Part shown: one piece after another, positions 1 through 45,121 of the stretch
How the letters are laid out: each line of letters begins with the position of its first letter
Numbering within the stretch: the stretch's first letter is position 1
From: an uncultured Acidobacteriota bacterium
Lineage (GTDB): Bacteria; Acidobacteriota; Blastocatellia; RBC074
DNA length: 64,000 nucleotides
Direction: 5' to 3'
NCBI GenBank assembly: GCA_963796275.1
Contig: CAWCKY010000001.1
Coordinates: 1,248,001 to 1,312,000, forward strand
Program-made: the position numbers and the translations under genes
The notes under the pieces: generated by a model
Database searches by the model: none
What the model saw: only the letters and a program-made list of their open reading frames with translations
What the model was told of the DNA's origin: nothing

Positions 1-1005
1 TCGAAATGGCTGGTCAGCCCCGGTCATCCTCTGACGTCTCGTGTAGCGGTGAACCGGTTCTGGCAGATGCTGTTCGGTTCAGGACTCGTCATCACCGGAG
101 AGGATTTTGGATTACAGGGAGAATTGCCTGCACACCCGGAATTGCTTGATTGGCTGGCGGTGGAGTTTATGAACCCGGGGCAGAACGGCGGGATGGGGCG
201 TTCGGGCGATGAACTAAAGAGTCCCATCGCCCAGTCCAACTCCCCAGACCTTCCGTGGAATGTCAAAGATTTGCTCAAGACAATTGTGATGAGCGCCACC
301 TATCGCCAGGAGTCTAAGATCGACGAACGCCTGCAACAGCGCGATCCGGACAACCGGTTGCTTGCGCGCGGCCCGCGGTTCAGGCTTCCGGCTGAAATGA
401 TACGCGACCAAGCTCTTGCTGTTTCAGGCCTGCTAGTTGAAAAACTCGCTGGGCCATCGGTAAAACCGTATCAGCCGGATGGTCTATACAAGGACATGGC
501 ATTTTCCGGTCTCACCGGTTACGAACGTGATAAGGGTGATGGATTGTGGCGGCGCAGTCTTTACACTTTCTGGAAACGGACTGTGCTCACGCCGAATATG
601 CAGGTATTCGACGCTTCGGCGCGCGAATTCTGCACGGTGCGGGATACGCGCACAAACACGCCGCTGCAATCGCTCAACCTGATGAACGATGTCACCTACA
701 TCGAAGCCTCGCGGATGCTGGCACAGCGGATGTTACTGGAAGGCGGGAATTCTCCGACCGCGCGAATCAGTTGGGCTTTTCGACTGCTGACATCGCGACA
801 ACCGAAAGCCAGAGAGATTGATATCCTGCTGCGGAATCTCGACCAACAGATAGCTCACTTCGCCCGCAATCCGCAGCATGCAGTCAAACTGTTGTCAGTC
901 GGTGAAATGCGGAATGACAGTAAACTGAATGCATCAGAACTGGCTGCGTATGCAGCGACGGCGAGTCTTATTCTGAATCTCGATGAAGTGATTACCAAGC
1001 AGTAA
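1..1005 (+). CDS. DUF1553 (PSD1)-domain protein, 5'-truncated by window edge
   Basis: Frame is open from base 1 (SKWLVSPGHPLTSRVAVNRFWQ). Motifs HPELLDWLA, EMIRDQAL, RRSLYTFWKR and TNTPLQSL are typical of DUF1553. It lies next to a DUF1501 gene, the usual partner. Confidence 0.9.
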   Translation, partial: SKWLVSPGHPLTSRVAVNRFWQMLFGSGLVITGEDFGLQGELPAHPELLDWLAVEFMNPGQNGGMGRSGDELKSPIAQSNSPDLPWNVKDLLKTIVMSATYRQESKIDERLQQRDPDNRLLARGPRFRLPAEMIRDQALAVSGLLVEKLAGPSVKPYQPDGLYKDMAFSGLTGYERDKGDGLWRRSLYTFWKRTVLTPNMQVFDASAREFCTVRDTRTNTPLQSLNLMNDVTYIEASRMLAQRMLLEGGNSPTARISWAFRLLTSRQPKAREIDILLRNLDQQIAHFARNPQHAVKLLSVGEMRNDSKLNASELAAYAATASLILNLDEVITKQ

Positions 1006-1212
1006 GTGTGTGTTTCTTCGAAGCCATGAAAGATCGTGATTGCCTATGATCTATTCGTAGAGGATGTGCAAATTATGAATGATGTTATAAACGCGCCCCC
1101 TAGGGTTATGGCAATGAATAGGACCCTTTTGGGGCCCTACGATGTAATCGACCTTAATTCAATGCCATTGTCCTTGGGGCTTCAAGTCGAACCAGCAAAG
1201 GTAGATTGACTC

Positions 1213-2667
1213 ATGATGAACCCGCTCAATGATTATCATCTGACGATGACCCGCAGGTATTTCTTCAGCAGATTTGGCCTCGGCCTCGGTACTGCCGCTC
1301 TGGCCTCGCTCCTGAAGGAGAATGTTTTTGGGAGGGGTTTGCCTCAAAATAGCGACGCTTTGAACGGTTTGCCTCATTTTACTCCTAAGGCGAAGCGCGT
1401 GATTTATCTCTATCAAGCCGGTGGGCCGTCGCAGCTCGAGCTCTTCGATCCCAAACCGATGCTTGAAAATCTGCGCGGCCAGAACCTGCCCGAGTCGATT
1501 CGGATGGGGCAGCGATTAACCGGTATGACCGCTCATCAAGCGACCTGGCCGACAGCGCCTTCGAGATTCAAATTCGCGCAACATGGCGAATCGGGAGCAT
1601 GGCTCAGTGAATTGCTTCCCCACACTTCCAAGCTTGCCGATCAATTGTGCTTCATCAAGTCAATGCATACAGAACAGATCAATCATGATCCGGCGATTAC
1701 GTTTTCGCTAACGGGGTTCCAGCTCGCCGGTCGTCCGAGCCTGGGTTCGTGGGTCGCGTACGGACTTGGAAGTGAGAATAAAGACCTGCCGGCATTCATC
1801 GTTATGATATCGGTCGGCAGGACCGGCGGCGATCAGCCTTTATATGATCGGCTGTGGGGAAGCGGATTTTTGGCTTCACGTTACCAGGGTGTGAAGTTTC
1901 ATAACGGTCCGGATCCGGTGCTCTACTTGTCGAATCCTCCGGGCGTGGCTAAGCAAGTGCGCAGGCAATTTCTCGATGATCTTGCGGAAATGAACCGGAT
2001 CAATGCCGAGGAGTTCGGTGACCCCGAGATACTCTCGCGCGTGGCCCAGTACGAGATGGCATATAGAATGCAGACCTCGGTTCCTGAACTGAACGATCTA
2101 TCAAAAGAGACTGAAAAGACCTTTGAGCGGTACGGTCCGGATGCGCGCAAGCCTGGCACCTTCGCGTTCAACTGCATTCTGGCGCGCCGCCTGGTAGAAC
2201 GCGGCGTGCGTTTCATACAGTTGTTCCATCGCGGTTGGGACCAGCACGGGGACTTGCCGAAAAACATAGCGAAACAGTGTCTGGACACGGATCAGCCTTC
2301 GGCGGCCTTAATTCTTGATTTGAAAGAACGAGGTTTGCTGGAGGACACATTGGTGATTTGGGGCGGTGAATTCGGACGGACGGTCTATTCACAGGGTAAA
2401 CTTACGGCCGACAATTACGGGCGCGACCACCATCCGCGCTGTTTCACTGTTTGGCTCGCAGGCGGCGGCATCAAGCCGGGAATTTCGATCGGCGAAACCG
2501 ATGACTTCAGCTACAACATCACTCGCGACCCGGTTCACGCCCATGACCTCAACGCTACCATCCTGCATTGCCTGGGTATCGATCACAAACAGCTAACATA
2601 CAAGTTCCAGGGGAGAGACTTCAGATTGACCGATGTTCATGGCAATGTTGTTACTAAGATTTTATAG
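1213..2667 (+). CDS. DUF1501 family (sulfatase-like) protein with Tat-like N-terminus
   Basis: TRRYFF N-terminus, [36 protein letters not shown] and GRDHHP motifs. Confidence 0.9.
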
Positions 2668-2675
2668 CTCGTGTG

Positions 2676-2691
2676 TGGCATCAGCTTTGCT
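2676..2691 (+). promoter_or_regulatory. Candidate sigma54 -24/-12 promoter
   Basis: TGGCATCAGCTTTGCT has exact GG-N10-GC spacing and is intergenic, upstream of the BON/SRPBCC gene. Confidence 0.4.
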
Positions 2692-2861
2692 CCTCCTTAC
2701 TTAATTCATATTTCTAGATCAGCTTGGATCGGAGACAGACGGATCTGTACCGCATATGGACGTACGTGCGGAGTGCATTGAGATAGTCTCCAGGTCTCTG
2801 GTTGGTTAATAGCAGAAGACTGTGCAAAAAAAAGTTAATTGAAATCAGCATTTTTCAGACC

Positions 2862-3015
2862 TGAGCGCCAGAGGCGCTGGATGTTTATAGTCTTCGATCG
2901 CCAGAGAATCACGAGCTCCGGAGGAGCGACATGTAGGCATTCATATGTCGCTCCTCCGGAGCTCGGGTTATTGTCAGTATCGTGAACTATAGACATTACG
3001 CGCCTCCGGCGCTGA
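2862..3015. repeat. Nested inverted repeat (REP/REPIN-like element)
   Basis: Inner perfect IR CGAGCTCCGGAGGAGCGACAT (2912-2932) / ATGTCGCTCCTCCGGAGCTCG (2945-2965). Outer imperfect IR AGCGCCAGAGGCGC..ATGTTTATAG / CTATAGACAT..GCGCCTCCGGCGCT. The half-site GAGCGCCAGAGGCGC recurs at ~4621. Confidence 0.75.
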
Positions 3016-3093
3016 GATGCGAGACTATTGATTCTGTTGGACACACGCTTCAAATAAATGAGCTGCTGAAAACTATTTTCTAGGGAGGTAAAG

Positions 3094-4389
3094 ATGAGAA
3101 GACATTGGATAAATATGATCGTTCCGAAAGACAAACGTTCGCGGTCTCTCACTAATCGGGCCGAGATGAGCCCGGCGCTGGCGGCGCTCGGCGGTCTGGG
3201 GATGGGGGCAGGTCTTATGTATTTATTCGATCCCGTTCGCGGCAAGCGGCGGCGCGCGCTCGTACGCGACCAGTTGGCGCATGCCGGACATGTGATTGCG
3301 CGATCGATGCCGACGACGTCACGCGACCTGAGGCATCGCGCTTATGGGGTGCTGGCTGAAGGCAGCCATCTATTCCAACACGAGGAAGTATCGAACGAGG
3401 TGTTGGAGGCGCGGGTGCGCGCGAAGATAGGGCGTTCGGTCTCGCACCCCCACGCCATCTCCGTCCAGGTCAGCAACGGGCGAGTCACATTGAGCGGCCA
3501 AGTATTGGACCTGGAAGTGAACCTCATGCTCTCGGGCGTTTCATCAGTGCGCGGCGTTCGAGATGTCGAGAACCTGCTGACGGTTCATACAGAAGACGAA
3601 GAAATACCCAGCCTGCGGGGCGGACGCCCTCGGACCGGCGATCGTTTCGCATTGATGCAGTCCAATTGGTCGCCGACCGCACGGTTATTGACGGGGTTGG
3701 CCGGAGGCGCTCTGATGGCCAATTGTCTATTGAGGCGCGACCCGCTGAGTATTGCGCTGGGCGCGGTCGGATTCGGATTGTTCATGCGCGGAAGTACCAA
3801 TCTGGATATCAAGAGCTTGATAGGCGTCGGCCGCGACTGTCGCGCGGTCGAAGTGCAGAAAACTATAAACATAAACGCGCCGGTCGAAAGGGTCTTCGAT
3901 TTCTGGACAAATTACGAGAACTTCCCGCAATTCATGTCGAGAGTACGCGAAGTGATACCAACCGGCACTGATCGTTCGCGCTGGATCATCGCAGGGCCCG
4001 CGGGCATTCCCGTTGAATGGACGGCAGAGATCACCGAGAAGGTGCCCAACAAGATGCTGGCGTGGAGGTCCATCGCAGGTTCTGCCATCAATCACGCAGG
4101 CATTGTCCACTTTGAGCCCAGGCGTGATAGCGGCACGCGTGTGCAGATCAAGATGTGGTATCGGCCGATCGCTGGAGCGGTCGGGCACAAGCTTGCATGG
4201 CTATTCGGTTCAGATCCAAAAAGCGAAATGGATGCCGACATGGTGCGGATGAAGACGTTCATTGAAACCGGCCATGCGCCGCACGATGCGGCCAGTCCAT
4301 TAACGCGAGAATCCGATTCAGCGCTGAGCCGCGCCCGGACGAATGAAGCAGAAGCCGGTAAAAAATCCCATCTGGCCGGAGGAGCCTGA
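3094..4389 (+). CDS. BON domain + SRPBCC (cyclase/dehydrase) protein
   Basis: LMYLFDPVRGKRRRA N-terminus, BON-like VRAKIGRSVSHPHAISV..VTLSG, and SRPBCC motif ININAPVERVFDFW..NFPQFM. GGAGG RBS upstream. Confidence 0.85.
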   Translation: MRRHWINMIVPKDKRSRSLTNRAEMSPALAALGGLGMGAGLMYLFDPVRGKRRRALVRDQLAHAGHVIARSMPTTSRDLRHRAYGVLAEGSHLFQHEEVSNEVLEARVRAKIGRSVSHPHAISVQVSNGRVTLSGQVLDLEVNLMLSGVSSVRGVRDVENLLTVHTEDEEIPSLRGGRPRTGDRFALMQSNWSPTARLLTGLAGGALMANCLLRRDPLSIALGAVGFGLFMRGSTNLDIKSLIGVGRDCRAVEVQKTININAPVERVFDFWTNYENFPQFMSRVREVIPTGTDRSRWIIAGPAGIPVEWTAEITEKVPNKMLAWRSIAGSAINHAGIVHFEPRRDSGTRVQIKMWYRPIAGAVGHKLAWLFGSDPKSEMDADMVRMKTFIETGHAPHDAASPLTRESDSALSRARTNEAEAGKKSHLAGGA

Positions 4390-22789: not shown

Positions 22790-23911
22790 TCATGGCCTTG
22801 AGCGGCCGAACATACGGCACACTAGCTCGGTACCTATGGCGCTGGTCATGAGGCGTTCTTTGCTGTCACCGAGTAATCGTTGCGTCCAGTTGACGAAACC
22901 GCCGTCAGCGAGCGCAAACTGCTCGCCGCGATCGTTCTTCGCTTTTATGTGAAAACAAGGGCCTTCGTAATATCCGAGTCCGGTCAGACGATATAGATTG
23001 AAACTCAAGCGGACTCCTTCGCGCTCCTCGCGCAATGGAGCGCATACATATTGTTCGAGCAAACCCATCTGTACTAGTAAATGCTTGGGTAAATCGAATT
23101 GCGCCAGATTCTCACTGGGCACAGCGAATGATCTGGGCCATGCGCTCGAGAGCTTCTCGATCAAGCGCTCCGAACTTGTATAGTCGCTCGCGCGCACGAA
23201 TGTTCTTATTTCATCTCTGCTAATCCCGAACACAGAGCAGAGATGCGCGACTACGCGCGTGTCGGAAAGTTCGACCTCAATATCTTCGAACCCGAAGTCC
23301 ATTGCCGACAACTTTTTCAAAAGTGTCAGGTAATATCCGATATGGTCTCCAAGGGCGGCCGTCTCAAATGAAAAAGATCCCGTGTCGCGCGCCGCGCTCA
23401 CCAAGCTGAATAGCTTGAAATGGGCGGTAAAACCCGCCGTCTTTGGCGCCGGAAATCTGACCACTCGCTGGCTGGCGCATAGTCGGGTAGTCTCTTTTCT
23501 GCTCTTGATATCTTTGCGGCGGCGAACGCACTCAAGCGCTAATCCAACGGTCGGATCAGCGGCGCATTCATATGCCCTGATCGAGCTTAAGACATTTCCT
23601 TGATCCAGCCCAGTGAGTGTCGCGATCGCCCCCAGCGGAGTCAGGGGTGACAACTCCATCGCTTCGAATTGCGGCGCAACACTATAACTAACATGTTCCA
23701 CTTCGTTCAGTAGCCGTCCGTCTAATCCACAGGGTTGAGTAACCATGTGGGAACGCGTCAGGTGAGATGATTCGATCTTACCGACTCGCCTCTTTAAAAC
23801 TGTAAGCAGTAAAGAATGAAGCTCCGCCCCCGAGAGTTTTTCTGAAAGAAGGTCGACCAGATCGTCTACTCCCAAGTCTCTGATAATTCGCTGCGCTATC
23901 TGTTCGCTCAT
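22790..23911 (-). CDS. Hypothetical protein; C-terminus resembles the class II aaRS (HisRS/HisZ) catalytic region
   Basis: GLGYYEGPCF...LADGGFVNW...SAIGTE parallels HisRS GLDYY..GGRYD..GFAIGLER. Confidence 0.65.
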   Translation of the reverse strand: MSEQIAQRIIRDLGVDDLVDLLSEKLSGAELHSLLLTVLKRRVGKIESSHLTRSHMVTQPCGLDGRLLNEVEHVSYSVAPQFEAMELSPLTPLGAIATLTGLDQGNVLSSIRAYECAADPTVGLALECVRRRKDIKSRKETTRLCASQRVVRFPAPKTAGFTAHFKLFSLVSAARDTGSFSFETAALGDHIGYYLTLLKKLSAMDFGFEDIEVELSDTRVVAHLCSVFGISRDEIRTFVRASDYTSSERLIEKLSSAWPRSFAVPSENLAQFDLPKHLLVQMGLLEQYVCAPLREEREGVRLSFNLYRLTGLGYYEGPCFHIKAKNDRGEQFALADGGFVNWTQRLLGDSKERLMTSAIGTELVCRMFGRSRP

Positions 23912-24090
23912 GATTTCAAGTCTATCTCTGTTAAAAAAATGATGTAAGCGGTATGGATTGAATGTTGGCCTTCAACGGATTTGTTTGACAAATTGGTCAC
24001 GTCTGCTCTGCTCAAAAGTTTCACGATTCACTCCTGAGAAAGGTGCGCAAAAATCGATTCGCAATTGAACGCGTGAGTGAATCGTGTGTA

Positions 24091-24207
24091 AATGAAAATA
24101 GCCACCGATGAGGTGGCTGTAACACTTTGTGTTTTTTAGGTGGGCCAGGACGGAATCGAACCGCCGGCGCACGGATTTTCAGTCGTGTGGTCAATCAGCG
24201 AACTGAA
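24091..24207 (-). repeat. att-like site 1: tRNA-Phe(GAA) 3' fragment plus flanking hairpin
   Basis: Minus strand 24139-24185 reads GACTGAAAATCCGTGCGCCGGCGGTTCGATTCCGTCCTGGCCCACC (anticodon loop, T arm, acceptor 3' strand). No 5' half/D arm is present. It is followed by the hairpin AGCCACC-TCATC-GGTGGCT. Confidence 0.8.
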
Positions 24208-24343
24208 TTGAAAATAAAAGAGAGCCCTGGGTACACAGCAAAGTAGACGAATGTCTGAAAAGCCCCTACCTGTCTGATCCGTTTAGAACCCCACTATAAC
24301 GCGTTAGCGTCATAGTGGGGAGGAGTAACTTCCTGCGCTACCT

Positions 24344-24371
24344 TCCTTCAACTGGATAACCAGTTGAAGGA
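24344..24371 (-). terminator. Stem-loop immediately after the lasso precursor stop
   Basis: TCCTTCAACTGG-ATAA-CCAGTTGAAGGA is a perfect 12-bp stem. A second hairpin lies at ~24288-24320. No clear U-tract. Confidence 0.55.
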
Positions 24372-24373
24372 TG

Positions 24374-24544
24374 TTAAGCTTCCTCGTCTTCGTAGATTGC
24401 GAACGGCTGCCAATAGTATCCGGGAGAGGCGGCAAATTCTCGCGGGCCTCGCGGCGCGTTTTCTTGAATCAATTCGCTGGCAGAACCAAGTTCGACGATA
24501 TCTATTTCCAGAGGTTCTGTACTATTTTGTTCTTGAGGTTCCAT
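24374..24544 (-). CDS. Lasso peptide precursor (A), 56 aa: MEPQEQNSTEPLEIDIVELGSASELIQ-ENAPRGPREFAASPGYYWQPFAIYEDEEA
   Basis: Hand-translated; below the ORF-track cutoff. AGAAAGGAG RBS. Leader pattern IVELGSASELIQ. Acidic residue at core position 9. Directly downstream of the cyclase on the same strand. Confidence 0.85.
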   Translation of the reverse strand: MEPQEQNSTEPLEIDIVELGSASELIQENAPRGPREFAASPGYYWQPFAIYEDEEA

Positions 24545-24681
24545 ACTATTCTCCTTTCTGTTATTTGTAGCATCACCTGAGTGGCGCGATGCGTGATTTA
24601 AACTCCGAGGGGGTAATTCGTCAACCTCCGTAGAAGTTTGTTAGTGAAACAATGGCGAAATCTAGTCGGGATCGGAACATC

Positions 24682-26637
24682 TCATGCTCCCTCAAATTGA
24701 GTCGAAGGCGCGTTGCTTCTTCCGGCGTAGTGATGTTCTATTGAGCGCAACCAAATCTCCAAAGATACAACATTGGAAAAAGCATCCAGCTCGAGCTCTA
24801 TGCCATGCCGAGCCTTATCAAGCGCCGACATCATCTCTTTATAATCAACATACCCGCGTCTGACTACGCGCGCATCATCGAGCATCGATTTAATTGCGAC
24901 CCATTCCTGCGCCAGACCGCGACAGAGTGTTTCGCTGACCGATCCTTTGCCTTTTCGCCGGAGGATTGTATCGGGCAGGATATCTTTTAGGGCTCTGCGC
25001 ATTAAAGGTCTAGTCTCGATCGGTTGGAGTTTCTGCTCGAGGGGAATGGCCATCACGAATTCCACCAGCGGGCGATGCAGAAATGGAAAAGTCTTGACGT
25101 AGCTGTGCGGATCACGATGCCCCCACGTGAGAGCAGAAATCGCATACATTAGTGATGAAGCTTGTGCCTGCTGGCTCGGCAAGCGATAACCGAACGGATC
25201 AGCGGGCAGGAGTAAGCGCGCAATAAAATCGGTCCTTTTGGCGAAATCTCGATTTACCCAGGCGGGAATCCGAAATTGATTCTGCAATCTTGCCTTGATC
25301 GAGGTGGACAGAAATGGGACCACGCCTTCCTGCCATAAGAGATCCCAATAAGTTTTGCGCAAAATTTGACTCCACTCCTGTAGTCGTCTATGCAGTCTAA
25401 GGGGTTTTATTCGATATATTAGTATCCCTATCTGTGCTGCGGGCGCGGGCGCGCTCCATAACAACTGGTCCCCGCCGAGCCCGCTCAAAAGGATGCGCGC
25501 CCCTTCCGCATTCATCGCACGCCCCACATGCGCCTGCGCTCCGTAAGTGCACAAACTTGCGCTCGGCCTCTCTATGAATTCGTCTTTCGGAGACGCTAAA
25601 TGAATCCAATGTCCCCGTCGCAAGAAGTGATACCCGGTTTCGCCACGCTTCTTCTCAACCGCCTCAATAAAACGGCGATCATAAGAGGTCTCTCCGTCAT
25701 CCAGATAAGAGATCGTTTTTAAATGCATTGCCTGACGGCTTTCTTCCGCCAGGATCCTGTCTGCCATGCAAACTATGGACGACGAATCCAATCCACCGCT
25801 TAATTCCGCCCATACGGGCCCATCCGCTCGCAAGCGACATCGCACTGCCTCCCGAAACAATTGGCGGAAGTGGTCCGCATATTCCTCATCTCGTTGATAA
25901 CGTATCTCTTTTTCCGTATCAGGCCGCCAGAATCTATGAGTTCGCACCTGGCCCTTATGAACAGACACGACAAAACCCGGTTCCACCGAAAAAACCTTGC
26001 GATATGGCGTGCGATATAATTCTGGAAATATTGCCAAATAGCCTGCGACAAACTCATCGTCAACCTCCAACTCGATGCCGGATGACTTGATCAATGCCTC
26101 AAGCGTCGACGACCAAATAAGCCCGCTATTGTCGGCGTGATAGTAGAGCGGACGGACGCCGAATGGGTCGCGTGCTAATAGCAGCGTTTTCGTTGCGTTC
26201 GTCCATAAAGCTAGCGCGAAATCGCCGATTATCTGCTGCAAGAAAGTTTTATCCCATTTGAGATAAGAGGACATCACCAGCGCAACATCAGTGGTGTCTC
26301 CGTTCAAGCCGTGGGGGAAATATCTTAGCAGGTCGTCACGATTGTCCAGACGACCATCCCATACGAGGATATCCCCCTGCGGTGAAACTAACGGCTGAAT
26401 TTCGAGTCGCGATTCTAGATCGGTAGGAAAAGCGCGAAAACAAAGACCGACGGAATCCTGTATCACTTGGCGCCCACCATCCGGCCCTCGTGGAATCAAG
26501 TCGCCGCTTAATCTAACCAGGGTACTTGTATTAATTGGCCCGTCGTTGAAGTTGATCAGCCCGCCGATTCCGCTCATAAAGTACCTTAGCAGTGGAGAAA
26601 AAATCTGTCTTGATATCAGCCGATAAACCGGACTCAT
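24682..26637 (-). CDS. Lasso peptide cyclase (C; asparagine synthetase-like)
   Basis: MSGIGG (lacks the AsnB catalytic Cys; alternative start 26577), GRLDNR, GDFA, ARDPFG, ELSGGLDSS, SGLGGDQ. Coupled to the B gene. Confidence 0.9.
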   Translation of the reverse strand: MSPVYRLISRQIFSPLLRYFMSGIGGLINFNDGPINTSTLVRLSGDLIPRGPDGGRQVIQDSVGLCFRAFPTDLESRLEIQPLVSPQGDILVWDGRLDNRDDLLRYFPHGLNGDTTDVALVMSSYLKWDKTFLQQIIGDFALALWTNATKTLLLARDPFGVRPLYYHADNSGLIWSSTLEALIKSSGIELEVDDEFVAGYLAIFPELYRTPYRKVFSVEPGFVVSVHKGQVRTHRFWRPDTEKEIRYQRDEEYADHFRQLFREAVRCRLRADGPVWAELSGGLDSSSIVCMADRILAEESRQAMHLKTISYLDDGETSYDRRFIEAVEKKRGETGYHFLRRGHWIHLASPKDEFIERPSASLCTYGAQAHVGRAMNAEGARILLSGLGGDQLLWSAPAPAAQIGILIYRIKPLRLHRRLQEWSQILRKTYWDLLWQEGVVPFLSTSIKARLQNQFRIPAWVNRDFAKRTDFIARLLLPADPFGYRLPSQQAQASSLMYAISALTWGHRDPHSYVKTFPFLHRPLVEFVMAIPLEQKLQPIETRPLMRRALKDILPDTILRRKGKGSVSETLCRGLAQEWVAIKSMLDDARVVRRGYVDYKEMMSALDKARHGIELELDAFSNVVSLEIWLRSIEHHYAGRSNAPSTQFEGA

Positions 26638-27398
26638 CAGGAACGGCTTAGGGCGTGAAAGAACGTCTGTACTTTCGGGTGATCGTTGACCACCTCTCCT
26701 TGAACTTCGACCCAGGCATGTCCATAAAAGGGCATTTTATGAATGCCAATGACCATTTCAGCAGGCGCGCCAATGCTTCGCAGCAGACAAGTGGTCGCCG
26801 CTGAACGTTGCAGACAGAGAGATTTTTTAGAGTACCAGGTGCAGGCGCGGACCAGTCTCGAGCAGATATATGCAATCATCTCAGAATCTGGAGCCCCGCC
26901 GTTAATCGGCCAACCGGACACGATGCGCCGAAGTGCGTTAATGCCGATCAGTTTGAGCACCGCATCCACTATCAAGAGTGCGACCAGAGCAGCAGGAATG
27001 TGAAGTTTCAGCTTTAAAAGTATCTCAATCAGGAAGCGCAATCCGTTCACTACACGTTGAGTCACTATCCCGCCGAGCCATTGGACGTCGACACTCGCTG
27101 ATATCGCAGAAGATTGCAGGAGCCCTTTCTCAGTCAACTTATTGATAAGTTCGTCAACGATCGACCCAATACGTGACGGCACAGAGGCATTGATCTCCGT
27201 ACTTGCAGCGCTAACGAGCTCTGCACGCGACAGACCGGAGTCGCTTGTTGCGATCTTGTGCAGAATTAACGCACCCGTTTTGTTGATGCTCAGGACCTTA
27301 TCTTGTCCGAAGTCGAGTAGTATGCACCCGTCCTCAGTGACTGGTGAGACATAGACATTCGGAGCTAACCGAATCTTCGTGAGGGGTGAAGGTGTCAT
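26637..27398 (-). CDS. Lasso peptide B protein: fused RRE (PqqD-like) + transglutaminase-like leader peptidase
   Basis: N-terminal DGCILLD..SINKTG..LTEKGLL is RRE-like. C-terminal CLQRS...GHAWVE..VVND carries the Cys-His-Asp triad. Confidence 0.9.
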   Translation of the reverse strand: MTPSPLTKIRLAPNVYVSPVTEDGCILLDFGQDKVLSINKTGALILHKIATSDSGLSRAELVSAASTEINASVPSRIGSIVDELINKLTEKGLLQSSAISASVDVQWLGGIVTQRVVNGLRFLIEILLKLKLHIPAALVALLIVDAVLKLIGINALRRIVSGWPINGGAPDSEMIAYICSRLVRACTWYSKKSLCLQRSAATTCLLRSIGAPAEMVIGIHKMPFYGHAWVEVQGEVVNDHPKVQTFFHALSRS

Positions 27399-27523
27399 AC
27401 GTACAAGGTAATTCGGATAGATTTCGCTCGATCAATAGAATTAACCATCAGGCTACACATTAAAGAAGATATATAGCTGTAATGCAACAGAGCCGGAGGT
27501 GAATGTATAGGTATGTAAAGTTG

Positions 27524-27639
27524 AATGAAAACGGCCACCCTTTGGCGGCCGTAAACTGTTTATTCTATTGATGGCCAGGGGACGGTATCGAACCGTCGAC
27601 ATACGGAGTTTAAGCCGGGTGGCCAAACAGTGAACAGAA
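27524..27639 (-). repeat. att-like site 2: degenerate tRNA-Phe 3' fragment plus hairpin; direct repeat of site 1
   Basis: Minus strand reads GGCTTAAACTCCGTATGTCGACGGTTCGATACCGTCCCCTGGCCA followed by CGGCCGCCAAAGGGTGGCCGTTTTCATT. Aligns by eye with 24091-24207 on both flanks. Confidence 0.75.
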
Positions 27640-27670
27640 AGTGGGATACCACAAACTATCACCAATGCCA

Positions 27671-28982
27671 TCATTTATCGTGGTCATCTTTCCCGTTATA
27701 GCCGTCATTGTCGAGAGGCCGCAGGAAGTTCTTGAAGGCCCAGCTGGCCACCTGTCTTCCCTGCTTTCGCGCCGCTTCGTCCGCGAAGCGGAAGTGGATG
27801 CCCTCGTAGATACGGGCGTCGACCACTTCCTCCGCTGCATCGGAGAAGCGTCTATAAGTGCGCGTGTCCTGAATGGTCGGCCCCAGGTTGGTGGTCGTCA
27901 CTGAGAAGGTCATGTCGGTCCGTCCCGAAGAAGAGCGTGAGGTGAATTGACCAGCGGCGCTGGTAACGTTGTTTGCGCCCGAGGTGTAGTCAGGATAGGG
28001 CGGGGTGGCGATGAGCGGCAGCCAGGTTGAGTCGCCGGCCGTCCGCGAGTTGCCGTCGTTGTTACCCTCTTGAATGGCGGTGACTGGCCGCCAGAAAACA
28101 TAGTAGTTCTTACTGTTCCAGGAAGTGATTTGTGCATCGGCCATCGCCATGTCAGCCAGGGCAAAGAGCCGGGCACTTCTGGCAATGTCGTCGACTTGCG
28201 TGCCGGCGATGTCCCTGAGCACCTGGTTCCAGACCACAACGTAGTTACCGGCCCAGAAATGGGCCAGGTCGGTCTGCTCGGGGGTGCGTGAGCTGTTGTT
28301 AAGGGCCCCCAGCGCTTTAACCTCGTTATAGTCCCTGGCGTACTCGCGGCTCGTCAAAGCGGGCGGCGGCGCGGCGCGGAATTGTGAAGGTCTGGTTAAG
28401 TGTGAAGGGGGTGACGTTGCCCAGCCACGGCGCGAGCATCGGCAACAAGGCCGGTGGCGTCGGGCGCCAGACGCCGGGATCGGTGCCGCCGATGAAGGGC
28501 GGCGGCGGCGGAACAGGGAAACTCCCGTCACATGCCCGCAGGGCGATGATCCCGGCGGCGGCTATTGCTCCCACCTCTACCCCGGGATCGTTCGCGGCAA
28601 GACCATGGTCGGACAGATATTGTTGGTAGGTCGTGTCGAGGGACTCGGCCTGAGCTGGAAAGCGGTTGACGAGCACATCGTGCGCGGCTTTGGCGGCAGC
28701 CGCCACCGGGGAGCCGGAGGCTCCCTTGATCTCCACGTAATATGGTTCGTACCGCTTCTCGATGGCCTGGACGGCGTCGTAAACGGCGGCCTGGACCATC
28801 GCAATGTCGAGGACGCCGGTCGGGCCTGGACGTGCGGCTGTCACGGTCGCTTGCACGGCGATCGCATTCCAATCGGCTACAGCATCGGCGCTGACGCTGG
28901 CGGGAGTTGCAAGCAAGATGACGAAGATGGCGATCCTCCGCCAGGTCTGAAGTTTCAGTATATTTGTAGTTGTGTATTTCAT
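27671..28982 (-). CDS. Vanadium haloperoxidase/PAP2-like protein, frameshifted near 28395
   Basis: DAVADWN, YDAVQAI, GVWRPTPP, KNYYVFWRP, YPDYTSG, ARIYEGIHF are split across two ORFs. AGGAGG RBS. Confidence 0.8.
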
Positions 28983-29287
28983 TGGAAGCCTCCTTTTAAC
29001 AACATTTTTAAAACATTTAACAGATTGAGCGGACAGAACATGCAGTATGGTCAATCGTTTTGTACCAAACCCACCAGGCCAACGAGACTATCCAACCTCT
29101 TGGACAGTAAGAGGCGAGGCATGGGCCAAATTGCTCTGGCCACCGACTTACACTAAAATGATCTGTTCATGTCGCCATTGCTCATCGGCCTATTTCACTG
29201 TGTACACTAATCTCAAGGCGGCGAGGAAATCCTTCCAGAGTGGCGAAAAATTTCGGAAAAAGATGAGAAAAAGTTCGGTAAGCCATT

Positions 29288-31232
29288 ATGAATCACTCGG
29301 CCAAGCACTTTTACGAATTCGGCCCGTTCCGGCTGGATATCGGCGAGCGCCTCTTGCTCCGCGATGGAGAAGAAGTCTCGCTCACACCCAAAATTTTTGA
29401 CCTCCTCCTAGTACTGGTCGAAAACAGCGGACACATTCTTGAGAAAGACGCGTTAATGAAAGCTATCTGGCCTGATGTCGTAGTAGAGGAGACGAACCTG
29501 ACGCGCAACGTCTCCACGCTAAGGAAAGCCCTGAGCGAAAGCTCGGACGCGCGTCCATACATCGAGACAATTCCCTGGCGCGGGTACCGCTTTGTCGCAA
29601 GCGTAAAGGACGTAACTAATTACAACACAGAGATGGCAATTGCAACGCCGTCCTCGCCGCCGATTCTGAGCGAAACGGAGGAGCGAGGCTCGCGAGGTGG
29701 AGAAATCTCTCCCGCAGGCCCCGCGTCAAGTACCGGGACTCTAGTTACCTTGATCAGGCGGCGTAAGGTCGCTGCCGGCGCCATCGCCCTGGCGCTCCTG
29801 GGTGTCGGCAGCTGGGCGCTCTCTCTGAGCATCGAGACCCACACGCCGATTGAATCGCTGGCTGTCTTGCCATTCAGCAGTGGTAGCGCTGATCCGCAGG
29901 CGGTATACCTGAGCGATGGAATCACTGAGAGCCTCATCAATAATCTGTCGCAGCTGCCAAATCTGCGTGTGATCGCGCGAACCACCGCTTTCCGCTACAA
30001 GGGCCAAACGTCGGACCCCTCCAAAATAGGACGCGAACTTAATGTCAAAGCAGCGCTCACTGGGAAAGTTCTCCTGCATGGCGACACTCTGATCGTCCAG
30101 GTAGACCTGGTGAACGTGGCGGATGGCGCGCAACTCTGGGGTCAACAGTACTCACGGAAACTTTCGGATATTTTCGCGCTTCAGGGAGAGATCGCGACGG
30201 ATATCGCCGAGGAGTTGCAAGCGAAACTGACGGGCGAAGAGAAGAAGCTATTGGCTAAACGTTATACCAATAATACCGACGCATATCAGCTCTATTTGAA
30301 GGGCCGCTATTTCTGGGATAAGAGGACGGAGGATGGGTTCAAGAGAGCCATTGATTATTTCCGACAGGCGACTCAGAAAGATCCACAATATGCACTGGCA
30401 CACACAGGTTTGGCAGACTCTTACATAGGGCTGACATTCTATAACTATCTTCCTCCCAAAGAGGCGATGCCGCAGGCGAAGGCATCAGCGCTGGAGGCGC
30501 AGAAGTACGATGACATGCTTGCTGAAGCGCACGTATCGCTGGCGCATGTCAAAGTGAATTATGAGTGGGACTGGGCGGGTGCTGAGAGCGAATTCAAGCG
30601 CGCCATCGTGCTCAACCCGCGATACCCAACAGCGCACCAGTGGTATGCTATTCATTATTTAACTCCGCAGGGGCAGCTGGAAGAGGCTCTTGCCGAAATG
30701 AGCCACGCCAGGGATACTCGATCCGCTCTCGCTCGTCATGAACACCTTTCTGGGTGCAACCCTTTATTACGCTGGTAAGTACGATCAGGCGATCGGGCAA
30801 TTTGTTAAAACGCTTGAACTGAATCCCGACTTCGGTGTAGCGCACTGGCACCTGGGGCTTGCTCTTGTGCAGGAGGCGCGATTCGAGGAAGCAATCGCCG
30901 AGCTAAACAAGGCCGTCACTCTTTCGGGGGGCAGCCCGCTCATGAAGGCGGCGCTCGGGCATGCCTATGCGGCTTCGGGTAGAAGAAGCGAGGCAATGAA
31001 TATCCTCACTGAATTACAGAAGTCGGCGGAACGAAGCTACATCTCAGCGAGCGAAATCGCGGCGATTTATGCGGGCCTGGGCGAGCGGGATCGCGCGCTG
31101 GACTGGCTTGAGAAAGCTGCGGAAGAGCGCGCATTCCACCTGGTCTACCTCAAAGTGAGGCCGGAGTTCGCCCCACTGCGCTCCACCCCTCGGTTTGAAG
31201 AATTGTTTAGGCGCATCGGTCTCGCACCATGA
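29288..31232 (+). CDS. OmpR/CadC-type winged-helix + TM + TolB-like + TPR regulator, frameshift near 30715
   Basis: YEFGPFRLD, LTPKIFDLL, IETIPWRGYRF, SLAVLPF, AYQLYLKGRYFW. TPRs continue in 30738-31232. Confidence 0.85.
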
Positions 31233-31339
31233 GTTGCTTGAAGCTGGAGGTGATCGGAGCCCAAGAGACTCCCGATCAAGCACCTGTTTACGGAGGGACG
31301 AGCCACCGGCACAGTGCTGCTCTGGATTTCGTGCTTCAT

Positions 31340-31654
31340 GAATCGCTGATCATCCACTTTATTTTGAATTGGCTACCCGAGCGTGCCATCACCATCCTGA
31401 GGAATTGCCGCAAAGCCATGAAGAAGACAAGCAGGCTGCTGCTTGTCGAGACGATCATAACTGTCGGGAATGACCTATATGTCGGAAAGTTTGTGGACTT
31501 CATCATGTTAACGATCAGGCGGTCAGAAAGAACAGAGGAGGAATCTGAGAATCTCCTTCAGGAGGCCGGTTTCCATCTCAACCAAGTCGTGCCAACAGTT
31601 TCACCCTTCGGCATGAGCATCATCGAAGGAGTATTGGATGATGGGAAGCACTGA
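31340..31654 (+). pseudogene. O-methyltransferase (Methyltransf_2) C-terminal fragment
   Basis: ILNW..ERAITILRNCRKAM..RLLLVE..DFIML..ERTEEE..LLQEAGF; N-terminal part missing. Confidence 0.65.
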
Positions 31655-36899: not shown

Positions 36900-38135
36900 G
36901 GGCTACCCACTGTCCGTTGCGAGAGATGATCACTTCTTGTGCCGCCAGATAATCTACCAGGTTGACTATAAACAGCGGATTGCCGTCAGTTCGTTGATAG
37001 AGCTGAGGCGTCAAACCCTCCGGGAGGCGATGTTGTGGGAACCGCACCTCTAGGTATTCGCTCACTGCTGCCTCAGTCAGAAATCCGAGCTGCAATTCTG
37101 TACATGGCGATGGATCAGCAGTTCCTGCTTGGTAGCTTTGAGCGGATGTCCACTTAGATTCACTTCGACTGGACGCCAGGTTCCAATCAGCAGGAAACGT
37201 GCCCGGTCGCTTCGCTGTGCCAGCGCGGTGATGAGACTCAATGTCGAGTCTCGCTCCAATGTAAGTCTTCCAGGACGAGCACGAGCGGAGTTTCAGCAGT
37301 CAGGACTGCAGTCGTTTCGGTCATCTCGCGAAGCATGCGTTCACGCGTCGCGCCGAATATCTCCTGGTGTAGAGCTGCTCGTTCGACAGCTCATGACGAG
37401 CGTTGGCATCTGCGCGAGGCAGGTCGGCGCCAGTTTGGCGAGCAACTCAATCAATTTTTCGCGCCCGGTTCACAGCACAGCCGGTTGAGCGCTTCAAACA
37501 CCGGCAAATAAGCCTCACCTGTACCATACTGTTCCAGGCATTGTCCGTACGCGATCGCAATGCGCCGCTTGTCAGTAACGCGCTGGAGAAAAACTTTAAC
37601 CAGGGTCGTCTTACCGATGCCCGGCTCTCCCGTCACAAAGACCACCTGCCGCTTGCCACGCAGTGCCGTCTCCAACCAGTTTTGCAGCCGAGTCAACTCG
37701 GTTTCACGCCCGATCAACTCGCTGCATCTCACTGCACCATCGGCAAGCTCCATCTCATGGTCCATAAAAGCGTCGCCGGAGCTTTCTATTACGCCAACTT
37801 CTTCCCACGACGGACTGACATGAACGATGAAGCGGTAGCCGCGTTTTGGGATCGTCTGAATATATTCCTGTCCTCCATCCATACCGCCCAATGTCTTGCG
37901 CAAATCAGAGATGTTCTTGACCAGATTGATCTCCTCGATAAAAACGTCGGGCCAAACCCTCTGCATCAAATCTTCTTTTTTGAGGGATCTGCCCGCCGCC
38001 TTCGACCAGGGCCAGCAAAATCTCGAAAGCCTTAGGCGTGATCGGTAGGTGTTGCTGGTTATAGAGCAAGATGCGCTCGCTCGTATCCAGCCGGAAAAGG
38101 CCAAAATGGTAGACGAGTTTGGCCGAAGGCTGCAT
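36900..38135 (-). pseudogene. Winged-helix + AAA ATPase regulator, frameshifted and truncated
   Basis: YHFGLFRLD, IQTIPKRGYRF, LIGRETEL, GEPGIGKT, RTDGNPLF are spread over several frames; no C-terminus. Confidence 0.75.
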
Positions 38136-38439
38136 GAGAATTGGGACCTCCCAGTGTTTTCCCAGGATTTCCCAAGACTTGCAAGATACGCTCGCAATAT
38201 TCTTCATCCTGCCTTAGGCCACCTGCCGGAGTATCCGGATCAGATGTCATAGCGCCTCATAAAGGCCGAATGTGGCAAATAGAGAAGGAAAAATCATTCT
38301 AAGGCAAAGAGGTTGCAAGGGGCGATCTATGAACACTCGGCCGCAGTATGAGAATGACAAAAAGCGGGGGAGGCAGTTGTTGCCAATCCCCCGGCTTTTC
38401 GTCGCTCTCTATGATCAATGGATAAAGTCCAGTCAAACA

Positions 38440-40905: not shown

Positions 40906-43900
40906 GTGATGTTAAGTCTGGTTGGGCGGACTCTCAACGCGGTAGGTGTTATAGCCGGCATTTCGTCGATGGTGGATGCAGAACCGGTACGCGAAGCCGC
41001 ACGACTTAATGATCCGGTTGAACACTCGGCCGCCCTGGCAGGAGCGTTAATAGGGGCGGCGATCGGAGCGGCTGTAGTAGTGGGGGCTGTATTGACCGGC
41101 GGGGCTCTTGCAGTAGCCATTGTCGGGGTATTAGGCGCCTGCGGCACGATTTCAACCGGCGGATTCCTGGGGCAAATGATCGGTTCGTCCCTTACAAGGA
41201 AGACGGGAATAATCAAAGCGCCCTGTGCCGACCGAGTCTACATAGAAGATAAGAAGGCCGCTCGATCAGCAGGAGAGGGAGGCGCCGGCGGGGATAAAGT
41301 CGATTGTGCCGGGCAGCCTCTCGGTATGTCTTCGCATCCTCATCGAGTGATTGCCGAAGGCAGTGCGACCGTATTTATCGAAGGACTGCCCGCCGCGCGG
41401 AAAGGTGACAGCATTGGTTGCATGGCCAAGATTGCCGAAGGGAGCTCTAGAGTTTTCATTTGGGGCGGGACCAAGCGATATGCTCCGGTAGATAGCGAGG
41501 TACCATGGTGGCTTGAATGGGGGCTGGCGGCCTTGGGTGTTGTCGGCATAGTCAGGTGGGCGGCTGTGAAACTGCTATCGAGGTATGCCCCACGCCTCTT
41601 GGGACGGATTCGCTCGCCTCAAGGTTGCAGGATAGGACGGGAGCGCGGCCAATGTGGGAGAGACCCGGTGGAGTTTGCTTCAGGCCGCGTCTTCACCTCC
41701 CATGCGGATTTTGAACTGCCGGGCCGGATCGCGATCGAATTCACCCGAAATTATGACAGTTCGGCAATCGATTACGAAGGACCGCTGGGGCGCGGCTGGA
41801 CGCATTCTTACGACATCCATCTCTGGGTAGACGATCAGCAGGAGATGGTCATCCTGCGAGATGAAGAGGCGGTGCTGTCCGGATTCGACCTGGTCGCCGT
41901 GGGAGAGAGGGCTTTCAATCCACTGAATCAGAGATGGTTGGAACGGTCGGACGATAAGGTGTACGTAGTCTGCGGTCAGGACAGACTGCGATACAAATTC
42001 GAATCTGTCGAAGCGCAGAATGCGGCGACGAAGAGCGAGGATGAACCGGATGGCAGGTCGGAGGCTGCGGCGCTGAAACTGACCGAGATCGAGGATATCA
42101 ACGGCAACCGGATCGAACTCTCCTATGAACGAGGGCGTCTCATCTCACTCGAAGATAGCGCCGGAACCCGGCTGAACTTTTCCTACATCACTTTGGAGAA
42201 AGGGGCGGAGCGGCTGGCCGCAGTCAGTCTGGCGCTGGATCCGGATGCGGACCGGACGGCGAGGCTGGTCAATTTCACTTACGACGCGGAAGGCTGCCTC
42301 ATCAATGCCACCGATCGGGGGTTGGTTCCGCGCCGTTATGCCTACGATGAATATCTGCTGAGCCGGCATACCAATCGCAACGGGTTGAGCTTTTATTATG
42401 CTTATGAAGGTGAAGGCAAAGAGGCGCGGTGCGTGCATACCTGGGGTGACCGGGGCATCTTCGAAGGATGGTTCGAATACGACCCTGGAAGAGATGATGA
42501 CGGTGGTCGAAGATTCGCTCGGAAGAAAACGACCTACTACTTCAATGAATTGGATATGCCGGTCAGGATCGTCGATCCATTGGGCGGGGAGAAGTCTTAC
42601 ACCTACGGTCCGAACGGAGAGTTGCTCTCGGAGACTGATGAGATAGGGCGCCTGACTAAATACGAATACAACGATAAACTCGATTGCGTCTGTATCATCT
42701 ACCCAGACGGTACGAGGCGCAGATTTGATTACAGCGAGGACTCGTTACCGCAGAAGCTCATCGACGAGAGCGGAGCGGAGTTCAGGCGTGTCTACGATCA
42801 ACGCGGCAACTTGAGCGCCACGATCGACGCCCTCGGAAATCGCTACCGAGTACAGTTACAACCGGTTCGGCGACCTGGAGAAGGCCGTCGATCCGCTCGG
42901 CGGAGAGACGAAGTTCAAATGGAACGAGCGGGGACAGATACTCGAATTGACTACACCTCTCGGAGCCACGACCAGGTACGGTTACGACGAACGGGGCAGG
43001 TTGATCAGAGTCAGCGATCCGCTCGGGAACGCGACGCGCTATGCTTATGACGCGCTGGATAGGCTGACGCAGGTGGAGCGCCCGGACGGCACGAGGCATC
43101 ACTTCGAATACGATCCGGAAGGCAATCTGACAAATTTCCTGGATGCAAACGGAGCGGAGACGCGCTTTCGCTATGTGGATAACAACAAACTAGGCGAGCG
43201 GATCGACGCGCTGGGGTACAGGCGACGGTTCGTCTACGACACCGAAGCCAATCTGGTCGAGGTTCGCAACGAGCGAGATGAAGCCTACGGGTTTGGCTAC
43301 GACGGGTTGGATCGGGTCACGCGCGAGGTCGGATTTGACGGCCTGACCTGGGATTATGATTACGACCGGGCGGGCCAGTTGATGGCGCGCACCGATCCGG
43401 CAGGACGCATCACGCGCTTCATCCGTGATCTAAATGGACAGGTGCTTGAAAAACAGCGGCCCGACGGATCAGTGATCAATTTCAACTATGACATTGTTGG
43501 CCGGTTGACCGAAGCCGATGCGCCGGGTAGCGAACTGGTCTTTAAGTATAACGCTCTCGGGCAAGTCATCCAGGAATCGCAGAACGGGCAGGTCATCGAG
43601 CACGAATACGACGCGCTCGGACGCCGGATCAAGCGCCGTTCGCCGGCAGGCGGGACGGTCGAATTCACCTACGACGCCGACAGCCAACATATCCGTCTGG
43701 AAACGCCTCGCGGTTCGATGAAGTTCCAGTATGACAAAGCCGGGACAATTAACCAAGCGGCGATTGCCAGGAGAACTAGAAGAGAGTTTCCATTACGACC
43801 AATGTGGGCGGCTGATCGAGCAGTCTATGTATAAGCCGAGCCATACCCTGGTTCATCGCGGGTACAAATACGATGCCGAGGGCAACCTGATCGAGCTGAG

Positions 43901-45121
43901 TGATAGCAATAAGGGGAGTGAGCCGTTTTGCTTATGATCCGGTCGAGCGATTGCGCGAAGTTTCGCGGCCCGAAAAGAAGGTCGAGCAGTTCATCTATGA
44001 TTCGACCGGGAACATGTTGCGGAGAGGAGAGAGAACGTTTCGCTATGGCCAGCCCGATCGATTGACAAGAACAGATGACGCAATACTGAGCTATGACGGG
44101 GCGGTAACCTGATCGAGAAGCGGCGAGGTCGATCGGTGATTCATTATAGCTACGATCCTGATAACCAGTTGATTGCAGTTGAATCGAAAGAGGGCGGGCG
44201 AGTTGAGTGTAGCTTATGATGCATTTGGGCGGCGAATTGCGAAGAGGACGAAAGATGGTGAACCGGGATACCTGTGGGACGATGATGTCTTGCTGGCGGA
44301 GCAGCGAGACAATAAAGTCGAGTGAATATATCTTTGAGCTTGATAGTTTTATGAGCCGTTGTAGCCGGTTTGATGAGAATGGTATTGAGACTTATCACAA
44401 TGATCATTTGGGAACGCCGCGCGAATTGACGGATGAAAATGGGCAAGTAGTGTGGTCTTCTGAGTATGATGTGTATGGTATCTCAAATCAGTTACACCGA
44501 GTGAAATCGGAAAATCAGATTCGCTTTCAAGGACAATATGAAGATTATGAAACCGGATTGCACTACAATTTTTACCGGTACTACGATCCAACGAATGGCA
44601 AGTATATAAGCCAAGACCCCATTGGGTTGTGCGGGGGTGGGAATCAGTATAGTTATACTCCCAACCCTATTAACTGGGTTGACCCCTTAGGTTTAGAAGC
44701 ATGCCCACAATTGTATGCCCGATATAAAATACTGAGGGCCAAAGGTTTCACACCAGCAGAAGCGGCGTTTGTTGCAAGAAATGGGAGATATACGGCAGCA
44801 TCCAGGGCACATCTAAAGGGTCAACAGCATCATGCACGTTCACAGCCGAAACAAGGTAAAGGGCGGTTTTTACCTAGAGAGGGTGGACAGAAGTTTACGG
44901 ATGAAATCATTTATCATCCAAACACGAAGTGGACACGTCAGCCGAAAGACAATAGATTTAGATTTGATAACTCTGATCTGGGTCGCAATGTGGGATATGA
45001 TACGGATAACAATACTCTTGTGAGAGGAGGAAGAGTAGTCTTGGAACGTGAGGTTCCCTGGAGTGGTTCTCCTTATGGTCCTGGGAATGCTGTGACTCAA
45101 TTCCCCCAAAAGTGGCCGTAG
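40906..45121 (+). CDS. prePAAR-TMD-PAAR-TMD-DUF6531-Rhs/YD toxin with C-terminal toxin domain; multiple frameshifts
   Basis: AARLNDPVEH, LPAARKGD, DPVEFASG, YD repeats, DHLGTPRE, RFQGQY, RYYDP, NPINWVDPLGL. Split over ORFs starting 40906, 42947, 43731, 43900 and 44216. Confidence 0.88.

Follow-up and report, generated by a model that had tools for sequence, protein, structure and literature searches.

A lasso peptide operon between two decayed tRNA-Phe-derived repeats in an acidobacterial genome

The lasso operon and its flanking repeats

The DNA analysed here, referred to as the window, is a 64-kb stretch (G000:C1:1248001-1312000; contig CAWCKY010000001.1) of the genome of an uncultured soil acidobacterium (9.46 Mb in 7 contigs), here called G000. 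It contains a compact lasso peptide operon that lies between two diverged direct repeats derived from the 3' part of a tRNA-Phe gene. Positions are those of the window unless a contig is named. The comparison set consists of 87 genomes of the same family, with G001 and G002 belonging to the genus of G000 and G080 to another genus.

The operon is encoded on the minus strand and consists of lasso B (26637-27398), a 253-aa fusion of a PqqD-like RiPP recognition element (RiPP, a ribosomally synthesized peptide that is modified post-translationally) with a transglutaminase-like protease (PF13471, 2.6e-19; PF05402, 2.5e-6); lasso C (24682-26637), a 651-aa asparagine-synthetase-like cyclase (PF00733, 3.4e-35; PF13537, 1e-18); and a candidate precursor, A, of 56 aa (24374-24544). 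The components that define a lasso cluster, namely B, C and a short precursor gene, are all present by these Pfam matches and candidate A. A hairpin lies 3' of the A gene on the same strand (24289-24320). The integrase expected inside a tRNA-targeting island is missing: only the lasso B, C and A open reading frames (ORFs) lie between the repeats, and the integrase family PF00589 has no match in the window and 20 in the whole of G000.

Both repeats, read on the minus strand, have the same succession of parts: an arm, which we call alpha; a tRNA-Phe core; a terminator; and TTTTCATT. In copy 1 (24091-24215) the arm covers approximately 24215-24183 and the core 24182-24139, followed by a spacer and the terminator (24118-24100); in copy 2 (27524-27639) the arm covers 27639-27615, the core 27614-27570 (with the loop CTTAAAC) and the terminator 27552-27531. 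A repeat search of the window recovers a direct pair of 60 nt (24148-24207 and 27580-27639; 78% identical, spacing 3432), and a sensitive BLASTN search of the whole 9.46-Mb genome aligns the copies with 73.1% identity over 119 nt (E 7.9e-13). In a MAFFT alignment, the similarity sets in some 25 nt upstream of the anticodon-like loop and ends at the TTTTCATT 3' of the hairpin. Local alignment scores were also compared with those of 5000 mononucleotide shuffles: on the upstream side of the anticodon-like loop (45 nt, with 19 of 24 positions identical in register) 6 of the 5000 reach the observed score, and on the downstream side of the tRNA-like 3' end (95 nt) 1 does. The E-value and the shuffle tests together exclude a chance resemblance of the copies.

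The sole tRNA-Phe(GAA) among the 47 tRNAs and one tmRNA that ARAGORN finds in G000 is at C4:1500350-1500425. Copy 1 aligns to C4:1500379-1500510 (81% over 137 nt), reaching 85 nt beyond the tRNA end, and copy 2 aligns to C4:1500381-1500470 (84% over 92 nt). Both therefore match tRNA-Phe from position ~30, in the anticodon loop, through the 3' end and into the terminator, 45-85 nt past the tRNA, and both are direct repeats made of the 3' part of a target tRNA. Neither has the complete cloverleaf of a tRNA gene, nor is either part of an intact tRNA: ARAGORN detects no tRNA gene in the 64-kb window, a search of 23500-28300 against Rfam returns no tRNA match at E<=10, and the only tRNA-Phe is on contig C4. 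On the 5' side of the anticodon loop, identity to tRNA-Phe is 62%, compared to 48-60% for unrelated arms, and is not a better match. A derivation of the alpha arm from a decayed D-arm was also considered, as the G001:C1021 site described below shares a 9-nt AGCTCAGTT, but was rejected, because over its whole length the arm resembles the tRNA 5' half no more closely than unrelated arms do.

Both hairpins are called intrinsic-terminator-like on the minus strand, and they are preserved, with a compensatory change at the base of the stem in copy 1 and a G-T pair in copy 2. Thus, much of what an earlier note had read from the letters of this locus is borne out: the diverged direct repeats (24091-24207 and 27524-27639), their derivation from the 3' half of tRNA-Phe, the similarity on both sides of the tRNA core, the incompleteness of the tRNAs, the hairpin in each copy and the lack of an integrase between or near them. 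Its account of an anticodon loop is correct for the extent of both copies, from loop to 3' end, but not for the sequence of copy 2, in which CTTAAAC has the triplet TAA in place of the GAA of Phe. The intact tRNA-Phe that the note proposed to look for is the C4 gene above, and an integrase ORF adjoins a separate tRNA-Phe fragment on that contig.

Related tRNA-Phe fragments, arms and integrases

Only three tRNA-Phe-like fragments occur in the 9.46 Mb of G000 outside the gene. Apart from the two window copies there is C4:1611384-1611432, the fourth tRNA-Phe sequence of the genome (98% over 49 nt), which has no terminator and adjoins a 391-aa ORF with a PF00589 match. A similar arrangement is found in G002, where the fragment at G002:C284:2960-3109 adjoins a 387-aa integrase ORF (PF00589, 6.5e-22). 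Further fragments are found in G001 (G001:C1042:83-201, G001:C1042:19450-19493 and G001:C1021:3122-3217) and in G080 (G080:C178), and all of these, including those on C4 and in G002, start at the anticodon loop.

The fragments differ in the arm that precedes the loop. Integrase-side arms are present in three of them (C4:1611384, G002:C284 and G001:C1042:83); a beta arm is common to C4:1611384 and G001:C1042:83, and G002 has an arm type of its own. The alpha arm is found at G001:C1021 and G001:C1042:19450 as well as in both window copies. When the alpha arm plus loop is searched as a pattern with <=2 mismatches, 7 matches in 5 of the 87 family genomes result, and the reversed pattern used as a control gives none. 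After alignment, full modules are seen in copy 1, the two G001 sites and G080:C178, partial ones in G080:C882 and G081, and a doubtful one in G083; copy 2 is too diverged to be caught by the pattern. An exact 44-letter pattern recovers 3 records among genome contigs and 1 among metagenome contigs, and on the metagenome contig L101 there is a module with 96% identity to the G080 site. The conserved length of the arm is ~145 nt between G001:C1021 and G001:C1042:19450, ~70 nt with G080 and 25-40 nt with the window copies. The module as a whole (alpha arm, tRNA-Phe core and terminator) measures ~200 nt and is 76-86% conserved across genera. Together, these comparisons make it very probable that the repeats are tRNA-Phe-derived attachment-site modules, with a putative att function.

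Several other features accompany these sites. The flank 3' of the copy 1 terminator (24049-24093, minus strand) is 80-84% identical to the flanks of the G000 tRNA-Phe and of the integrase-adjacent G002 fragment, and has two spaced ACxCACG-type motifs. A paired short motif, with its members ~12 nt apart, lies 3' of the terminator at each site (24049-24093; 27480-27523; C4:1500470-1500510, L035; L065 ~160-200, in G001:C1042; and L031 ~3075-3120), and is the same within a site and different between sites: ACTCACGC occurs twice after tRNA-Phe and in G001:C1042, ACTCCCA twice in G001:C1021 and ACyTnTACAT twice in copy 2. To judge from their arrangement, these pairs look like putative arm-type protein-binding sites. 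A 15-nt inverted repeat (14/15; 27431-27445 and 27558-27572) brackets the copy 2 terminator, with one arm, ATCAATAGAAT, at the tRNA-like 3' end and the other upstream of lasso B. On L101, a 48-nt match (460-507; 94%) to tRNA-Arg(acg) lies ~170 nt upstream of the intact alpha module, so that fragments of two tRNAs stand side by side.

The terminator flank 3' of the G000 tRNA-Phe may be native or island-borne, and C4:1500426-1611384 may be one 111-kb island. A native flank could not be taken from other genera, where synteny around tRNA-Phe is lost; G001 is syntenic upstream of the tRNA only. A gene common to the terminator flanks was also sought, and BLASTP of 14 neighbour ORFs returned only a broken-ORF match and an integrase-integrase match. 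The window also has a 1.45-kb segment (36906-38341) that is 87% identical to C4:1514320-1515763, 14 kb downstream of the genuine tRNA-Phe, and covers a 248-aa Trans_reg_C plus AAA_16 fragment of a STAND-type regulator.

The cores within the window have decayed. Their identity to the G000 tRNA-Phe is 91% for copy 1 and 82% for copy 2, compared to 95-100% for the six other fragments and 98-100% for the alpha- and beta-arm sites, and the two cores are only 78% identical to one another. The loop reads CTGAAAA at every other site, and the identical core or overlap of an attL/attR pair is accordingly missing from the window (78%; CTGAAAA in copy 1, CTTAAAC in copy 2). The crossover would lie at the anticodon loop, since the tRNA-Phe homology begins there in all fragments and since the 5' half of a tRNA-Phe in G081 stops just after it. 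Tyrosine recombinases usually require identity in the overlap region, and a mutated overlap should block the exchange.

The G081 sequence (G081:C6:228806-229134; L076/L077) is a split tRNA-Phe in which ARAGORN finds no tRNA: the 5' half stops directly after the anticodon arm and gives way to unrelated sequence, with an inverted alpha-like fragment ~270 nt away. To judge from this layout, the sequence was inverted, or a recombination at the anticodon loop was left unrepaired.

Identity to the tRNA-Phe locus is 81% for copy 1 and 84% for copy 2; in addition, copy 1 has 79% identity to G001:C1021, and copy 2 has 82% to G080:C178. There is also a weak chimera signal, in that the cassette-side halves (the copy 1 arm and the copy 2 terminator) are 75% and 84% identical to the G080 site and the outer halves 68% and 72%, differences that amount to a few nucleotides only.

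The layout of tRNA, island, integrase and 3' fragment recurs in G000, as tRNA-Leu(caa) has an intact gene, an island, an integrase and a 3' fragment, with the gene 19 kb upstream of the fragment; in addition, a tRNA-Pro 3' fragment adjoins an integrase. In G001:C1042, two co-oriented fragments, one beta-type and one alpha-type, lie 19.3 kb apart and PF00589 is found in 0 of the 10 ORFs scanned between them. The cargo of this segment (L065, 730-14170) comprises two successive sets of genes for STAND-TPR NTPases, AAA-CHAT protease-like proteins and radical SAM proteins, which makes G001:C1042:730-14170 a candidate defence island. This is the only other inter-site cargo seen, and it is not RiPP-like by its Pfam matches.

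The cassette in another genus and the surrounding region

Lasso C matches at E<=1e-30 are found in 49 of the 87 family genomes. The closest is in the other genus, at G080:C349 (82% aa), and the next, in G001, is only 44% identical. The G080 contig aligns with the window by BLASTN over 24368-27466 (minus strand), in segments of 78% (27466-26619), 84% (26580-24729) and 77% nt (24628-24368); candidate A is conserved in G080, and so is the hairpin 3' of A, which extends the shared part to ~24289 and marks the distal end of the sequence common to both genera. The shared sequence stops 57 nt short of copy 2 and ~80 nt short of copy 1. The GC content of the cassette is 50.2%, compared to 54.3% for the genome.

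The lasso contig of G080 has no tRNA-Phe-like sequence, the best hit of a short-word BLAST search being a 14-nt word, and a search for flanking repeats around the cassette gave only short pairs inside genes, none of them convincing. The G080 cassette, together with an N6/N4 DNA methylase gene, sits between a hisZ-like gene and a GHMP kinase gene, and the homologues of these two genes in G000 are neighbours at C3:1321592 and C3:1321700, 108 nt apart. The occurrence of B-C-A at two unrelated loci in two genera suggests that it is a discrete unit that was relocated or acquired independently of the repeats, and its occurrence in G080 with no repeat at all implies that the repeats do not define the cassette.

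The precursor (24374-24544, minus strand) and its G080 homologue (L096 5449-5619) share ...IDIVELGSASELIQ, followed by (E/D)(N/G)APRGP, and in neither is the position two residues ahead of any plausible cleavage site a Thr. Some Acidobacteriaceae lasso clusters are reported to have a leader of the Ile(-2) type, as outlined in PMC10368454, and candidate A may have one too. No lasso cluster on a tRNA-linked island appears among the titles and abstracts listed in the literature searches.

The gene directly beside copy 2 is frameshifted or broken: two overlapping ORFs of 286 and 242 aa (27671-29054, minus strand) match the C- and N-terminal parts of a single 432-aa ORF of G001 (78-81% aa), and the broken gene belongs to no Pfam family. 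G001 is homologous to the window from 27657 onward, just outside copy 2, and its genes on the other side are unrelated. Just after copy 1 is a 373-aa ORF (22790-23911, minus strand) with a weak tRNA-synt_His match (class-II aminoacyl-tRNA synthetase-like, 5e-5, below the cut-off), which is unlike the hisZ-like gene beside the G080 cassette. Farther to the right there are pieces of a prePAAR/PAAR/RHS-repeat protein (40906-45121; 714 aa, and 301 aa with the RHS core) and a short methyltransferase fragment (31229-31654), which give the right side of the window the look of a region of decaying genes.

Among the sequencing runs listed as carrying this DNA there is no RNA run, and each DNA run has a share of <=0.11; the evidence from them consists of contigs. 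Two hints come from contigs of soil metagenome X2. One contig joins 24183 to 27677 and thus skips 3493 nt, as a hint only, since its shorter side is 31 nt and the threshold was 85%. Another, of 486 nt, links B to copy 2, again as a hint only, with 56 other letters in 482 nt.

The assembly itself was searched for a join of C1 with C4 that would place all four tRNA-Phe-like sequences in one array, and the 3-kb contig ends give no such link: the matches of the two C1 ends are to one another and to the right end of C3, and those of the right C4 end are to C3 and C4. The ends of C1 are inverted copies of each other (1-3000 and 1321755-1324661; 94% over 2.9 kb), and the right end of C7 and left end of C2 have common tandem repeats of ~3.3 kb. 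Such contig-end repeats are probably the cause of the assembly breaks in G000.

Proposed origin of the islet and comparison with known systems

The best reading of the locus, and one that we hold to be somewhat better than an even bet, is that the lasso operon came to lie between the repeats through site-specific accretion, as an islet resembling a cis-mobilizable element (CIME), and is now fixed. Genomic islands of this acidobacterial family would carry or leave modules when tyrosine integrases recombine at the anticodon loop of tRNA-Phe. The integrase-less B-C-A islet may be a product of tandem accretion, or of insertion at an att-like site that was already resident, and may then have become fixed as the cores drifted and copy 2 lost its crossover sequence. 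Both hairpins still resemble working terminators that are predicted to insulate the lasso cluster. We infer both the placement of the cassette by site-specific recombination and its present immobility from the features of the repeats and of their relatives. The earlier note had offered a remnant of a tandem island array as one origin of the cassette, and of its proposals this is the one best backed by the relatives, with their integrase-adjacent fragments and the 19.3-kb integrase-less segment in G001.

Several observations weigh against this. Upstream of the copies an intact tRNA-Phe is missing, the only one being on C4, and the contig ends give no C1-C4 link; whole-genome BLASTN finds no further tRNA-Phe fragment on C1 that could bound the presumed neighbour islands. 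Among the neighbours scanned (the window, 2 ORFs of G001:C1021, 10 of G001:C1042, 2 of G080:C178 and 4 of G080:C882), none of the 6 alpha-type sites examined has a PF00589 ORF beside it, and no integrase is thus tied to the alpha arm. Candidate empty-site alleles in G001 and G002 (66-84% nt among the matches listed, on short contigs) do not yield a readable true empty site. Finally, as the G080 cassette has no repeats and lies between genes that are adjacent in G000, relocation by another route is possible and the repeats need not have served the arrival.

The last point leads to the main alternative, in which the repeats are att relics or pseudo-att sites that happen to bracket a cassette that arrived otherwise, by illegitimate or homologous recombination or by replacement of cargo. 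We consider this unlikely, though clearly the strongest of the competitors: the G080 B-C-A (C 82% aa; 77-84% nt), which occupies an unrelated locus and has neither a tRNA-Phe fragment nor a convincing flanking repeat, the end of the shared sequence 57-80 nt inside the repeats and the alpha-type sites with no associated integrase all speak for it. It would, however, leave to coincidence that a 3.2-kb foreign cassette has, no more than 60-80 nt from each of its ends and in direct orientation, a member of a rare module family, in a genome whose 9.46 Mb hold only three tRNA-Phe-like fragments outside the gene, and the weak chimera pattern fits a site-specific insertion. A more novel but quite improbable reading is that the alpha module acts as a portable landing pad, a ~200-nt pseudo-tRNA-Phe dispersed across the chromosomes of this acidobacterial family, at which tRNA-Phe integrases acting in trans insert, stack and swap small integrase-less cargo, the window pair being a frozen instance. 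If true, this would amount to a tRNA-fragment-based cassette exchange distinct from integrons, with a lasso operon as the cargo here and STAND, CHAT and radical-SAM genes in G001.

Taken in a strong form, the other proposal of the earlier note is that the cassette can be mobilised in trans at present and belongs to an integron-like exchange of RiPP modules. G000 does encode a tRNA-Phe-associated integrase (C4:1609997-1611172) that could act on it, the two sites are directly oriented, the cassette is skipped in one metagenome contig, and there is precedent for integrase-less islands mobilised in cis or in trans, as outlined in PMC5704250 and PMC3146451. This is nevertheless highly improbable, since the cores are 78% identical, copy 2 has CTTAAAC where other sites have CTGAAAA, and the C4 integrase is linked to the beta arm, not the alpha arm. 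The cores that have fallen to 91% and 82%, together with the mutated loop, leave a present mobilisation unsupported; the site-free B-C-A of G080 and a shared sequence that stops 57-80 nt inside speak against repeats that delimit an exchangeable RiPP module; and an integron-like exchange finds no support in the only other inter-site cargo seen, of STAND NTPase, CHAT and radical SAM genes, which is not RiPP-like by Pfam. Marginally less probable again is that the modules are retained because they have a role in themselves, either as a small tRNA-like RNA with its terminator or as operon-insulating terminators. The two intact hairpins, with the compensatory change in copy 1 and the G-T pair in copy 2, and the 76-86% conservation across genera would suit such a function, but no Rfam family matches, and the decay of the tRNA-like part here, set against the 98-100% identity of live sites to tRNA-Phe, is more easily reconciled with recombination with the gene than with an independent RNA. 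In addition, no sigma-70-like promoter was found upstream of either module, and the three promoter-like sites, one of them inside the tRNA-like part of copy 2, compare with a shuffle mean of 4.3. Least credible of all, and already disfavoured, is that a pseudo-tRNA region was duplicated locally in tandem, or that the resemblance is due to chance: the copies are close together and in direct orientation, but each is nearer to sites in other genomes than to its partner (73%), which argues against local duplication, and chance is excluded by the shuffle tests and the BLAST E-value.

If site-specific accretion is accepted, a small RiPP operon in Acidobacteriota can end as a minimal genomic islet with a tRNA-derived att scar on either side, and the locus would be a new example of a known phenomenon in a phylum that has seen little work on its mobile elements. 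Movement of the lasso operon between genera would then have followed at least two routes. The most interesting by-product is the alpha module, with which island junctions in these genomes can usefully be mapped. Also, the flanking terminators and compact size should make the lasso cluster easy to clone and express.

CIMEs, as PMC5704250 outlines them, are att-flanked elements that lack genes for integration or transfer, and accretion is integration into a resident att site. The lasso islet agrees with this outline, and with tandem accretion of the ICESt1/ICESt3 type, in being flanked by putative att sites, in lacking integration and transfer genes and in its presumed tandem arrangement with site-specific elements. 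Whether its sites still recombine with a cognate integrase is doubtful from their sequence, as their decay argues against it and one weak metagenome joint is the only hint in favour. It differs from CIMEs in that both sites are decayed, no intact target gene adjoins them, no cognate integrase is found and the cargo is only a 3.2-kb RiPP operon. The ssrA islands of Dehalococcoides are also close in kind: in the account given in PMC3146451, multiple islands lie in tandem, with direct repeats of a small-RNA gene's 3' end as their boundaries, and 15 that lack an integration module are proposed to be CIMEs or fixed. Repeats of a small-RNA 3' end, conservation that extends beside the repeat and integrase-less members are common to both systems; in that account, however, the Dehalococcoides islands use a serine recombinase and a 20-bp tmRNA repeat, and all lie within 100 kb of ssrA (PMC3146451). 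The acidobacterial sites instead have 45-nt tRNA-Phe cores in ~200-nt modules, tyrosine integrases are implicated, and the copies are unlinked to the tRNA gene in the assembly.

Integron cassettes are likewise short, promoter-poor cargo between recombination sites, exchanged by an integrase encoded elsewhere. Here, the integron platform of attC, IntI and attI is absent: there is no IntI-type gene or attI nearby (no PF00589 in the window), the sites are tRNA-derived and not attC hairpins, and the G080 cassette is free of sites. A further parallel is provided by islands of the pheV/pheU type, for which tRNA-Phe is an integration hot spot with a crossover in the anticodon loop, and in which the displaced 3' fragment starts at that loop. 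The sites described here belong to a different phylum and, in addition to the tRNA 3' part, carry the terminator of the gene and a conserved upstream arm.

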